DNA of 64,000 nucleotides from an uncultured bacterium (GTDB lineage Bacteria > Babelota > Babeliae > Babelales > Babelaceae), in contig OY970332.1 of assembly GCA_963717435.1 (NCBI GenBank), forward strand, positions 736,001-800,000. Direction: 5' to 3'. A program made the position numbers. Of the stretch, positions 36,001 through 39,000 are shown piece after piece; the first letter of the stretch is position 1; every line of letters begins with the position of its first letter.

Positions 36001-39000
36001 CCCGTCGCCGATAATCTCTAATCTTATATTATTATTTTTTTGATAAGCACAGTTAAACGCTTCTATGAGATCTAACAGGTTTTTTTGTGGCTTGAAGCAT
36101 GAGATCGACCCGAATGTGAAGTTGGCGCCATCCCTCGATACATTTTTCTCCGTTTCACTACGAAAAACACTCGGGACGAGCGGGGTGCTGGCAAAATCTA
36201 CTAGAAACTTGTCAGAATCGACAGCGGCGCGTATTAGAGCATATTTTTTCTTGAAACCGGGGATAAGTTTATTTCCAGTTTTAATATCATGGGAAGAGAC
36301 ACAAACAAATTTTGTTGTTATCAGCCCAGTTAATAACTCCGGGATATATATCAAGAGCCATTTTAAATAATTTTGATGCTCATGAAAGCCGTAGCCATGA
36401 ACAGTGTGAACCCTGTTTTTTATTCCTGCAAATAGTGCTGCCCAGCGGCCAACTATACCAGCTTTGGTGCTATGCGTGTGAACTATAATATTGGGGTTAT
36501 TTTTTTTAATTTTTCTCAGCTCTTTAATTAAAATAAAAAAATTTTTTATTTCCAAAAAAATAGCTTTAAAAGAAATTTCTCTTTTAAAGCTATCCAATAA
36601 AATTATATTTTTGTCAGATTTGACACTATCACTTAAGAGTCCATCAGAGCCAGATATTAATATAGTCTCAAAGTTTTCTTTTCTTAAGCCATCAAGCAGA
36701 GCAAGACAAACTTTTTGCGCACCGCCAAGTTCAAGTTTTGTGATTATATAAACTACAGTTTGATTTTTTTGCATAGCACTCTACCACTTTTTTTTATTAC
36801 TCTTTTTTGTAAAAAATATTTTAAATATTAAAAACAAGCATCAACATAGTAGCACCGAAACAGTATACAGCAGAAGCGTCTATAAAGCCCTGTGTGAGTA
36901 TACTCGACTTTGAAATAAGAGAATAAAGTTCAGGTCTTTTTGCAAGTTGGTTGCACGCAGCAACGGCAGTTTTTCCTGAAGCGATTCCACAACCTAATGG
37001 CCCGATGCCCATTAAAAGTGCCATGGCCAAAAACACAAACGCGCTAATCGGTGTGATATTAAAATTTACAGTTGCTAAAATTGCGCTTGTTATTAGTGAG
37101 AATAAAACAGGAGTTTCGATCATCGCCTGGCTGATAAAAGTAAGAGAAAGAATTTTCGGGTAAGCCAATCTGTTATAGCTGATCCCGTCGTATGCGCTTT
37201 GCGCAAATTTGCTTATCCCAATTAATGGCCCAATAGAACCAAGGCCTATACAGAGCCCGCTAGAAAACAGTTTAACTGCGTCATGTATATTTGTTATAGA
37301 ATTTATTTTGCTTACAATTATTGCCGCCACAATAAATCCAAAAATAAACGAAGTTTGCAAAATCGATAAACTTAGTAGCATTAAGTTTGTTATTTTCTTG
37401 CTCAAAAATGGCTGTCTTGAAATAGCATAAATTGCTCTTTGGGCAGGTTTTACTGAAACCAAACTTGCTGTTAATCCTGTAAAAATTAATGCAGCTGCAA
37501 CGCCCAGTTCAGCAAAAATTGTATATATGTTTGCCGGATTTTTTAAAACAAATAAAAGCGCCATCGATAAAACCATACTTAATACCGCGCAGGTTTCAAG
37601 TAGGCCCATGGCAATTAAAGACAAGGTTCTTAAATCGTTTTTTGCAGCTGGCTGGATATTAATTGCATCAACAGTTGTTGTAGCAATTTCGCCCTGTCCT
37701 TTTGCGACGGCCCAAGAATTAACTATGAGTATAGATAAAATTATTAAGTAGTGAATTAACTGAAAATACTCTGTCATTTGGGCTCCTCTTGAACAAGTAA
37801 AGCTAAATTGGTTAACGAGATTATTGAGAACACAAATGATTGCAAAAAGCCCTCAAAGATTATAAAAAAAGCGGTAATTATAAACGGGATCCCAAAAATA
37901 GATGTGATTAAGTGCCCTATAACGGACCCTGAAACGGCTTTGTTATACATGGTCACAATAATCGCTCCGCCAAAGATATTACCAAACAATCTAAAAGAGA
38001 GTGACATTATTGTCGCCAGTTCCCCGATTATATTCAAAAATACCATGGGCGCAAATGGCGAAAAATAGTGGTGAATATAAGCATATAGCCCATTTTTCTT
38101 TATAGAAGCAATTTGGATATAAAGAAAAGTTATAATAGCAAGCGCCAGTGTAGTATTGAGGTCTTTTGTGGGTTCTTCAAGTTCAGGAATTAAAGCTATC
38201 CAGTTGCATGCCAGAATAAATAAAAAAATCGAAGTGATAAAACTAAAATAATTAAAAGAGAATTTGCCAACAGACTGCTGGATCATGGTCATGAAGTTTA
38301 TTACTATATTTTTTGTAATAAATCCCGCCACAGTCTCTTTTTTGTATAAAATAAGATACCTGCCCAAAATCCCCAGGGCAAGTAAAATTCCCATGGCGAT
38401 CCAGGTATTGATTAGTGTTTCACTGTTTAATATAGCAAATATGCTTTTTATATTTGCCAGTTGCCACTGGTGCGTCCCAAATATTTGGATGCCTTCCACG
38501 CGTAGCCTCTTTTTGATAAAGATTTAATCAGACTGAAAATTAATTTTTATTCTGATCCTAATTATAAGTTTATTTATTTTTCGACGCAACAAAACTGTTT
38601 AAATAATCTCTAAAATATCTTATCCATAAAGTAACTTATTATTCTCGAGCCAAATCTATATGGCGGGTATCTGAATGGCAGTTCAAATCTTCCGGACCTA
38701 ACTACGGACTTATAATTGGAAAAAGTCTCGAAGCTTGTCTTGCCATGATATCTGCCAAATCCACTTTGTCCAACCCCACCAAATGGCAGGTAAACTGAAC
38801 CCGCATGGGTTAAAGTGTCATTTATGCATATGGCACCGGAGCTTGTGTTGTTTATTATCTTGTCTTGAGCTTCTATATTTTCAGTAAAAATATAAATAGC
38901 CAGCGGCTTGGGGTTATTTTTAATATAATTTATAGCCTGATCTATATTTTTGTAACTTATTATTGGCAAAATGGGCCCAAAAATCTCACCATCAAGATTA

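Follow-up and report, generated by a model that had tools for sequence, protein, structure and literature searches.

The window analysed here is a stretch of 64,000 nt (positions 736,001-800,000 of contig OY970332.1, assembly GCA_963717435.1) from an uncultured member of the Babelaceae, and all coordinates are positions in this window unless prefixed C1. An open reading frame on its minus strand (36821..37777, with the stop codon at 36821-36823) encodes a protein of 318 aa that matches PF00137 four times, with a score of 91 bits for the whole protein. In a genome-wide scan, the four stretches scored 25.3, 28.8, 35.1, and 35.8 bits, each above the cut-off of 24 bits. The repeat period is 80 aa, and an alignment of the 80-aa pieces placed E61, Q141, E221, and D300 in the same column as E64 of an ordinary 85-aa c subunit encoded elsewhere in the genome. 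The first-pass annotation had described this protein as four fused c-subunit hairpins with E, Q, E, and D at the ion-binding positions; that description is borne out, and a true four-hairpin F-type c subunit, hereafter c4, is supported.

All four hairpins lie on the minus strand. Hairpin 1 (aa 1-80, 37538..37777) contains Q28 in helix 1, the loop Q42-P43, and the site E61 (codon GAA, 37595-37597). Hairpin 2 (aa 81-160, 37298..37537) contains the loop R121-Q122-P123 (37409-37417) and is the only one without a carboxylate at its site, which is Q141 (CAA, 37355-37357). Hairpin 3 (aa 161-240, 37058..37297), with a G183-P184..G187 motif and the site E221 (GAA, 37115-37117), includes the strongest PF00137 stretch (residues 172-234), and hairpin 4 (aa 241-318, 36824..37057), with the site D300 (GAC, 36878-36880) and Y305, is the one closest to the 85-aa c subunit (31% identity). 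In the c4 of this genome, hairpins 1 and 2 have no glycine motif in their first helix. Among 134 aligned relatives, E61 is present in 98% and Q42 in 96%, and R121, Q122, and P123 are found in 96, 92, and 99%, respectively. In ordinary c subunits the RQP loop contacts the central stalk. An origin of c4 by doubling of a double hairpin, which would make hairpin 1 resemble hairpin 3 and hairpin 2 resemble hairpin 4, left no such signal in the profile matrix, where hairpins 3 and 4 are mutually closest. Scans for promoters and terminators between 36500 and 38800 gave counts close to those of shuffled sequences.

The gene directly 5' of c4 is atpB (37774..38499, minus strand), which encodes the 241-aa subunit a of Fo from a GTG start (PF00119, 117 bits) and is the sole a-subunit match in the genome. 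Its stator arginine is R170 in the motif FRLFGN, and all 35 a subunits that were aligned have the arginine of this motif. At the junction (37774..37791, minus strand), GAGGAG is followed by a 4-nt ATGA overlap of stop and start codons, and atpB directly precedes c4, abutting or overlapping, in 34 of 34 related loci, which agrees with the gene order first reported for this locus. The genome encodes a complete but scattered F1Fo set with one each of a, alpha, beta, gamma, epsilon, delta, b, and b'. A third PF00006 match reads as Rho, and a genome scan gave no match to V_ATPase_I (PF01496), the V-type a subunit; because there is one copy per partner subunit in addition, the genome encodes one such enzyme only. 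c4 is thus encoded with Fo/F1 genes, and all its partners are F-type, with none of the V/A type. c4 scores below the NCBIfam AtpE equivalog cut-off (best model NF009998, 91.1 versus 116 bits), and these models describe single hairpins; against the V-type K model NF005124 it reaches 41.8 bits, with a cut-off of 127. A V-type origin of c4 was rejected on the weak V-type K scores together with the lack of a PF01496 match in the genome.

No AtpI was found in the genome (best PF03899 match 13.7 bits, E 0.07), and both A. woodii-type operons and the Desulfobacterales c4 operon described below contain atpI. This would fit a c4 that does not rotate and instead takes over the role of the missing AtpI as a scaffold for ring assembly, or is a stator-side or free-standing c-derived membrane protein. 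The more rapid evolution of c4 (46-47% identity to the nearest relative, G022, versus 72% for the single c) and the helices without a glycine motif in hairpins 1 and 2 point the same way. However, the sites of hairpins 1 and 3 are carboxylates in 98% and 97% of the 134 relatives and the RQP loop of hairpin 2 is near-invariant, both features of a working rotor subunit, and the single c is predicted to sit beside hairpin 4 as a ring neighbour. We consider a non-rotating c4 very unlikely.

The 85-aa single-hairpin c (C1:228005-228262; a single PF00137 match, and 51.7 bits against NF009998 with its cut-off of 116) is encoded at the head of a c-b'-b-delta-alpha cluster. This cluster lies 545 kb from c4 in a different transcription unit, which counts against the two proteins sharing a ring. 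The protein carries Q31 and E64-T65 (Q....ET). According to the rule given in bioRxiv 10.64898/2026.10.01.756066, Na+ coupling is marked by a helix-1 Q plus E[STQ][STQ]xxY; the 85-aa c has the full Na+-type motif, as do no more than 7 of 17 single-c orthologs, which counts against assigning the ion, and no c4 hairpin satisfies the rule alone. The membrane pyrophosphatase of this genome was uninformative about ion type because it exceeds the cut-offs of both the "sodium-translocating" and the H+ models.

To determine how widespread these genes are, we surveyed 261 genomes of the phylum. Of these, 258 have a match to c4 and 259 a match to the single c, and each is found in all 189 genomes of good quality, so that the normal c subunit is retained beside c4 as first noted, in genomes of roughly 1 Mb. 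In each of five divergent genomes, one frame contains exactly four hairpins and a short frame contains one. Site patterns are less uniform: among 149 full-length relatives, 114 have [E/D]-Q-E-[D/E], 18 have four carboxylates, and 17 have other patterns; 7 of the 149, besides the 114, have M, L, or V at the lost site. Site 2 is Q in 30 of 30 sequences of the crown clade (29 loci and the query) and E in 5 of 5 loci of a sister clade (families f3, f5, f14, and f17). Hairpin profiles of the two clades score 42-91 bits on the diagonal and 14-56 bits off it, and because the hairpins match by position a single ancestral fusion is indicated; given the four carboxylates of the sister clade, the fusion therefore appears to be older than the site loss. 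The first-pass annotation had regarded the whole set as conserved through the phylum. This holds for c4, its linkage to atpB, the single c, and the short epsilon described below, but not for E-Q-E-D, given the E at site 2 of the sister clade and the relatives with four carboxylates. Judged by these alignments, the conserved trait is the fusion and not the lost site.

The best solved relative of c4 is the c1 subunit of A. woodii (4bem_J, E 1.2e-6), as had been proposed together with its E-then-Q order: E61 pairs with the E hairpin (ET/ET) and Q141 with the Q hairpin (QT/QT). The two systems share a multi-hairpin c subunit encoded after atpB in an F-type enzyme, a hairpin with a carboxylate and, after it, one with glutamine, and a coexisting single-hairpin c with Q....ET (motif per PMC7911925). 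They differ in that c1 has two hairpins and one site, whereas c4 has four hairpins (eight helices) and three sites; in that the single c of A. woodii is encoded in the atp operon, which in operons of that type includes atpI, and here in another locus; and in that A. woodii is an acetogen, whereas c4 is phylum-wide in an ATP-importing lineage. The A. woodii ring contains nine single c subunits and one double c (PMC9171764), so that both kinds have been shown in one ring there, whereas c4 and the 85-aa c are a modelled pair. In the literature surveyed, no other F-type mixed ring is described, and c4 with its normal c points to a rotor of a kind otherwise described from this one acetogen. The occurrence of hybrid rotors is reviewed by Brandt and Muller (2015), who may already refer to longer c fusions.

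Two publications regard multi-hairpin c subunits as characteristic of archaea or V-type enzymes and name A. woodii as the F-type exception (PMC9171764; bioRxiv 10.64898/2026.10.01.756066). Archaeal c subunits with 1, 2, 3, or 13 hairpins are listed (PMC9171764), Methanopyrus kandleri being an example with 13, and a length of 1021 aa is given for 13 hairpins (bioRxiv 10.64898/2026.10.01.756066). c4 resembles archaeal A-type c subunits as a fusion of hairpin genes, sometimes with loss of a site, and differs from these components of A/V-type enzymes in having F-type partners throughout. That covalently joined c hairpins can make a working F-type rotor is known from Bacillus PS3 FoF1, in which fused c multimers are functional (PMC8809890), although those fusions, unlike c4, are artificial and consist of identical hairpins with linkers. 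In the fused c10 of that enzyme, a single E56Q abolishes ATP synthesis (PMC8809890, citing Mitome 2004), whereas in c4 a Q hairpin is conserved; a blank is therefore not harmless in every enzyme, which counts against a hybrid ring here.

A second group of four-hairpin c subunits was identified in Desulfobacterales (P0177/P0030; loci L054-L078 and L090). These proteins are about 324 aa long with four PF00137 hairpins, and like c4 they are encoded directly after atpB and begin with an E site followed by a Q site. Two of their four sites are lost (E-Q-Q-E in 23 of 23 loci), they have two-carboxylate E..ESTxxY motifs, and in every case a single c lies directly 3'. In one metagenome-assembled genome (MAG) the operon reads atpI-a-c4-c-b'-b, and the same MAG also has a plain a-c module. 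The hairpins score 69-94 bits against the profile of their own single c, compared with 27-63 bits for the hairpins of the Dependentiae crown clade against theirs, and are thus much nearer to ordinary c subunits. Further proteins with four or five hairpins are P0147, P0150, P0151, P0167, P0168, and P0174. A shared origin of the two fusions was unsupported, with no diagonal in the profile matrix, although saturation is possible; because their hairpins do not match those of Dependentiae position by position, the Desulfobacterales proteins are probably an independent fusion.

A predicted complex of c4 with the 85-aa c gave an ipSAE of 0.74, compared with 0.00 for the best of three controls; at the mark used, 116 of 157 solved complexes pass, and so do 2 of 215 mismatched pairs. 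Contact agreement between runs was 100%, pLDDT of the partner was at least 87, and the modelled 85-aa c docks on hairpin 4 (c4 residues 243-317). Such a pass may do no more than mirror a resemblance to c-rings of known structure, and c4 paired with itself should pass as well. A hybrid ring of c4 and single c is plausible. Under this reading, c4 would be a rotor subunit of the single F1Fo ATPase, descended from an ancient four-hairpin fusion whose hairpins were then specialised by position, and most likely occupies one ring together with 85-aa c subunits, in the manner of the double-hairpin c1 of A. woodii, probably with few c4 copies per ring. Ions would be carried on E61, E221, and D300 of hairpins 1, 3, and 4, and hairpin 2, with Q141, would be a blank as it moves past the stator arginine R170.

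The genome might instead encode two interchangeable rotors that use the same stator and F1, namely a ring of c4 only and an ordinary ring of the 85-aa c, used at different stages such as inside and outside the host. A c4-only ring of two to four copies would have 8, 12, or 16 hairpins, of which 6, 9, or 12 would carry a site, and the 12 hairpins of three copies fall inside the range of 8-17 quoted for F-type rings (PMC9171764). The separate transcription units of the two c genes (a-c4 and c-b'-b-delta-alpha, far apart on the chromosome) are compatible with this, and the Desulfobacterales MAG with a-c4-c and plain a-c modules indicates that alternative Fo modules exist. Yet there is only one a subunit, which is tied to c4 and would have to serve a ring of the 85-aa c as well, neither c gene has been lost in the 189 small genomes of good quality, the invariable single c after the Desulfobacterales c4 fits co-assembly better, and the 85-aa c is predicted to dock on hairpin 4. 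Alternative rotors thus appear unlikely.

Regarding the direction of work, the epsilon subunit (C1:457592-457831) is only 79 aa, as first described, with a PF02823 score of 19 bits, and epsilon is found in frames of 79-112 aa in 58 of 61 phylum genomes. Its identification is weak, with PF02823 below the 27-bit cut-off and PDB matches at E 0.14 and 0.56, which counts against a hydrolysis reading. In other bacteria, the epsilon C-terminal domain brakes hydrolysis. The genome also encodes three TLC translocases and one membrane pyrophosphatase, which suggests an organism that imports ATP. Yeoh et al. (PMC4776705) describe the phylum as having no electron transport chain and already proposed ATP hydrolysis to maintain a gradient. 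Because ATP is apparently imported, a respiratory chain is absent according to that literature, and epsilon lacks the brake domain, the enzyme would work chiefly in reverse and use ATP to set up a gradient of Na+ or H+. We consider it somewhat probable that the ring is a hybrid resembling that of A. woodii and that the enzyme mostly hydrolyses imported ATP.

Rotor make-up sets the number of ions moved per ATP, and the fused subunit could serve to reduce the number of ions per ATP, as in V-ATPases, and thereby let hydrolysis build a steep gradient. The first-pass annotation had suggested ATP-driven pumping with a hybrid or low-stoichiometry rotor; the ATP-importer genes and short epsilon suit a pump, and it is the gearing argument that is weak. 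Of the 149 relatives, 114 are without a carboxylate at one site in four and another 7 have M, L, or V there, Q141 is kept in each of the 30 sequences of the crown clade, and fewer ions per ATP generally mean steeper gradients (PMC9171764). However, with one blank in four, a ring built of c4 alone would move at most 25% fewer ions in each turn, and a hybrid ring would lose about one site, a far smaller change; four carboxylates, moreover, occur in the sister clade with the same fused gene and in 18 of the 149 relatives. Desulfobacterales, which are free-living sulfate reducers, have a comparable c4 and c pair in Fo operons and lose two of four sites. The hybrid enzyme of A. woodii synthesises ATP at low driving force despite its blank site (PMC9171764). 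A rotor shaped by low gearing is accordingly quite improbable.

Duplication of the c hairpin followed by loss of a site is the textbook route from an ATP synthase to a V-type pump. A broader and rather doubtful possibility is that a multi-hairpin "keystone" c is a recurrent F-type solution that arose independently in Dependentiae and Desulfobacterales. A single c4 molecule, produced together with the one a subunit, would then seed the ring and fix its size, the loops Q42-P43 and R121-Q122-P123 would offer the central stalk a unique foot, and each turn would include a deliberate blank step; with a brakeless epsilon, the Dependentiae F-type enzyme would be committed to ATP-driven pumping, a bacterial parallel to the F-to-V transition. 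A four-hairpin c is fixed across a whole phylum of host-dependent bacteria, and the sister clade, the crown clade, and Desulfobacterales form a natural series with four, three, and two sites that is suited to testing the role of the fusion in ring assembly and size, the tolerance of a blank step, and the relation of site loss to a commitment to pumping. In databases, this four-hairpin architecture is hidden under the name "ATP synthase F0 subunit C".

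On its minus strand, the window encodes a 318-aa protein (36821-37777), here called c4, that the Pfam model ATP-synt_C (PF00137) matches four times; a genome-wide scan scored all four stretches above the 24-bit cut-off (25.3 to 35.8 bits). When c4 was cut every 80 residues and the pieces were aligned with the normal 85-aa single-hairpin c subunit of the same genome (C1:228005-228262, where C1 is the genome's contig numbered over its whole length), the resulting gap-free register placed E61 (GAA, 37595-37597), Q141 (CAA, 37355-37357), E221 (GAA, 37115-37117), and D300 (GAC, 36878-36880; all minus strand, read from the sequence) in the column of E64 of the 85-aa c. 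The four-hairpin c subunit with these site residues, which the first-pass annotation had placed after atpB, is thus upheld by the Pfam matches, the register, and the codons; it is a real feature and kin to the known hybrid-rotor type. Pairwise identity between its hairpins is just 13-21%, and the hairpin nearest to the 85-aa c is hairpin 4 (31% identity). Each hairpin carries conserved marks specific to its position, the strongest being Q42-P43 in hairpin 1, R121-Q122-P123 in hairpin 2, and G183-P184..G187 together with E221 in hairpin 3. Upstream lies atpB, encoding subunit a (37774-38499, minus; PF00119, 117 bits), the stop of which overlaps the c4 start in ATGA, with GAGGAG immediately before. 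Genes for an aldehyde dehydrogenase and a group-1 glycosyltransferase flank the a-c4 pair. The window also holds three consecutive small ORFs with signal-like N-termini (34350-34673, 34716-35042, and 35061-35306, all minus), one of which ends in a Gly/Tyr-rich tail.

The genome, a single 1.198-Mb contig, encodes one F-type ATPase set that is divided among four places with no single operon: a-c4 in the window (36821-38499, minus), c-b'-b-delta-alpha at C1:225090-228262 (b', b, and delta being labels from gene order and size for the ORFs at C1:226592-228001), beta-epsilon at C1:457592-459097, and gamma standing alone near 722 kb (C1:721972-722829). There is one gene for subunit a, and the stator arginine in FRLFGN is conserved in all 35 aligned a subunits. 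We found in the genome neither a V-type a subunit nor a convincing match to AtpI (best 13.7 bits), and a third match to ATP-synt_ab looks like Rho. Epsilon is 79 aa, with a weak Pfam match (19 bits against a 27-bit cut-off); two PDB chains were also matched weakly (E 0.14 and 0.56), both of them epsilons of 141-148 aa in which the match is confined to residues 20-79, the N-terminal domain. Just past the c-b'-b-delta-alpha cluster lies a tandem pair of near-identical 394-aa ORFs (C1:229581-230765 and C1:230783-231967).

In our phylum sample of 261 genomes, every one placed in a single order, c4 was matched in 258, including all 189 of good quality; the three remaining genomes are 59-70% complete. 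The 85-aa c was matched in 259 of 261 genomes, a few weak matches among which may be c4 hairpins, and the best 150 matches all lie in 82-171-aa frames. The gene directly upstream of c4 is atpB at each of the 29 best loci and at all five loci of the most divergent families, and in each of those five divergent genomes PF00137 matches exactly five times, with four of the matches sharing a frame of 322-338 aa and the fifth in a frame of 86-108 aa. Among 61 evenly drawn genomes, the epsilon model PF02823 matched in 58, always in a stop-to-stop frame of 79-112 aa, and gave no match in G057, G059, and G118. Retention of c4 through the phylum sampled, with atpB upstream (34/34 loci), a single-hairpin c, and a short epsilon, is therefore supported. 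Across 1.84 billion representatives, a complete HMMER search collected 332 c4 relatives at E <= 1e-3 and 113 at <= 1e-30, mostly 305-325 aa long.

The site residues proved less uniform than the E-Q-E-D pattern claimed for the whole phylum. Among 149 full-length relatives (295-335 aa, of 177 proteins collected, some of them from outside Dependentiae), 114 have [E/D]-Q-E-[D/E], 18 have a carboxylate at all four sites, site 2 is M, L, or V in seven, and ten have other patterns. The best 29 genome loci read E/D-Q-E-D/E, and the five loci of families f3, f5, f14, and part of f17 read EEEE (four) or EEED (one). A tree of subunit a (36 rows; one locus, L026, was left out because the contig end cuts its subunit a), with two long-branched Desulfobacterales a subunits as outgroups, shows two sister clades in the phylum sample, both well supported and congruent with the two patterns. 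Because same-numbered hairpin profiles match far better between the clades (42-91 bits versus 14-56 bits for other pairs), we conclude from these profiles that the Dependentiae fusion is a single event of long ago. By parsimony and the weakly rooted tree, the site-2 change from E to Q is most simply placed after the fusion, in one clade.

A second four-hairpin lineage emerged from a weak match (P0177/P0030, 324 aa, 27% identity), through which we reached 25 loci in MAGs with labels such as Desulfobacterales, Desulfosarcina, and Desulfococcus; all 23 full-length copies read E-Q-Q-E. In the chromosome of one such MAG (G261; L090:5745-9445 and L058:8001-10500), the first copy lies in the order atpI-a-c4-c-b'-b. 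A second, partial set has a 27-residue remnant of a ahead of c4-c-b'-b, and the same genome carries, at another place, a plain AtpZ-like-atpI-a-c module. All of these may serve a single F1 as alternative Fo modules. The motif E..ES(T)xxY/F, the two-carboxylate type described for Fusobacterium (PMC3692424), occurs in the single c of this lineage and in hairpins 1 and 4 of its c4. Since the Desulfobacterales hairpins resemble ordinary c much more closely than those of Dependentiae do, and profile comparison found no position-wise match between the two sets, we read this c4, short of proof, as a fusion that would be independent of the Dependentiae one.

The nearest solved relative of the Dependentiae c4 is c1 of A. 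woodii (E 1.2e-6), in an alignment that pairs ET with ET and QT with QT. Passages of PMC9171764 describe the A. woodii ring as nine single-hairpin c subunits plus one double-hairpin c, in an enzyme that makes ATP. By analogy, c4 and the 85-aa c would most likely share one mixed ring. Such a ring would fit the retention of both c genes in every good genome, at genome sizes of about 1 Mb, the tie of the lone subunit a to c4, and the adjacency of c4 and c in the Desulfobacterales operon. In the complex as modelled, the 85-aa c lies on hairpin 4 of c4 (residues 243-317) with an ipSAE of 0.74, the best of three controls giving 0.00; in reference sets, 116 of 157 solved complexes and 2 of 215 mismatched pairs attain the mark applied. 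The three runs had 100% of contacts in common, with partner pLDDT >= 87. Because hybrid and ordinary c-rings have already been solved, this pass may reflect likeness to them, and the model cannot separate contacts between c4 and c from those between two c4. That the stop of a overlaps the start of c4 hints that a and c4 would be made in similar amounts, and hence that a ring would hold few c4.

As to the coupling ion, the 85-aa c has Q31 and E64-T65-S66..Y69, which agrees with the Na+ rule of a helix-1 E/Q plus E[STQ][STQ]xxY, as worded in section 2.3 of bioRxiv 10.64898/2026.10.01.756066, and with the Q....ET motif that passages of PMC7911925 give for A. woodii and C. aceticum. Among 17 orthologs, Q is kept in 16 and T or S follows E in 16, and the full rule holds in only seven; no c4 hairpin satisfies it alone. 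The membrane pyrophosphatase, encoded by one gene (C1:670765-672738, 816 bits), clears the NCBIfam cut-offs of both a Na+ and an H+ model and so does not point to either ion.

This pyrophosphatase and three ATP/ADP translocase (TLC) genes (C1:6906-8234, C1:115905-117239, and C1:928796-930133) are marks of an energy parasite, and the enzyme would act mainly as an ATP-driven ion pump. Passages of PMC4776705 report that Dependentiae have no respiratory chain and that their ATP synthase perhaps maintains a gradient through hydrolysis. A pump role fits the translocases, the pyrophosphatase, this published view, and the loss, throughout the phylum, of the C-terminal domain of epsilon. In other bacteria that domain has an inhibitory role. 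Such inhibition is touched on in PMC9171764 and PMC9317440. The first-pass annotation had taken the enzyme to be geared to pumping; the pump role fits the importer genes and short epsilon, but the idea that the blank site of c4 serves to lower the ion count per ATP is weak. With one blank in four, that count drops by no more than a quarter, and in a mixed ring the drop would amount to about one site per ring. Moreover, the fused gene is equally retained in the clade without the blank, and two of four sites are gone in Desulfobacterales, which are free-living sulfate reducers. ATP synthesis by the A. woodii enzyme, as passages of PMC9171764 describe it, also speaks against such gearing. In its favor, a conserved blank could bias the enzyme against synthesis and is not trivially neutral, because in Bacillus PS3 ATP synthesis ceases when a fused c10 carries a single E56Q, according to passages of PMC8809890.

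Databases already list c4 proteins under the routine name ATP synthase F0 subunit C, the named homologs being 'Candidatus Dependentiae' proteins. In agreement with the earlier claim of novelty, our full-text literature searches, with subscription literature outside their scope and an earlier mention possible there, turned up no account of an F-type c with four hairpins from either Dependentiae or Desulfobacterales. In a 2026 preprint on how rotary ATPases evolved, multi-hairpin c is presented as a trait of archaea and A. woodii as the case of a mixed ring, and the words Dependentiae, Babel, and Desulfobacter do not occur in its text; passages of a 2026 Desulfatiglans paper (PMC13343851) mention only multiple atpE copies.

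Look-alikes of c4 in the ESM Atlas are PF00137 clusters of 228-323 aa with 112, 58, and 50 members, most commonly from Thermodesulfobacteriota. Further five- and four-hairpin c proteins (P0150, 406 aa, and P0167, 411 aa; P0147, P0151, P0168, and P0174, 316-328 aa) include the site patterns ESSQ, EQQQ, EQQH, and EEEQ, and F-like multi-hairpin c subunits are therefore more diverse than the Dependentiae and Desulfobacterales lineages. Finally, two 'hypothetical proteins' of 1139-1147 aa from Promethearchaeota/Hodarchaeota (Asgard archaea) MAGs (P0148 and P0178) have 15 PF00137 stretches; they would be c subunits, longer than that of Methanopyrus with its 13 hairpins, and may form a whole ring in one chain.
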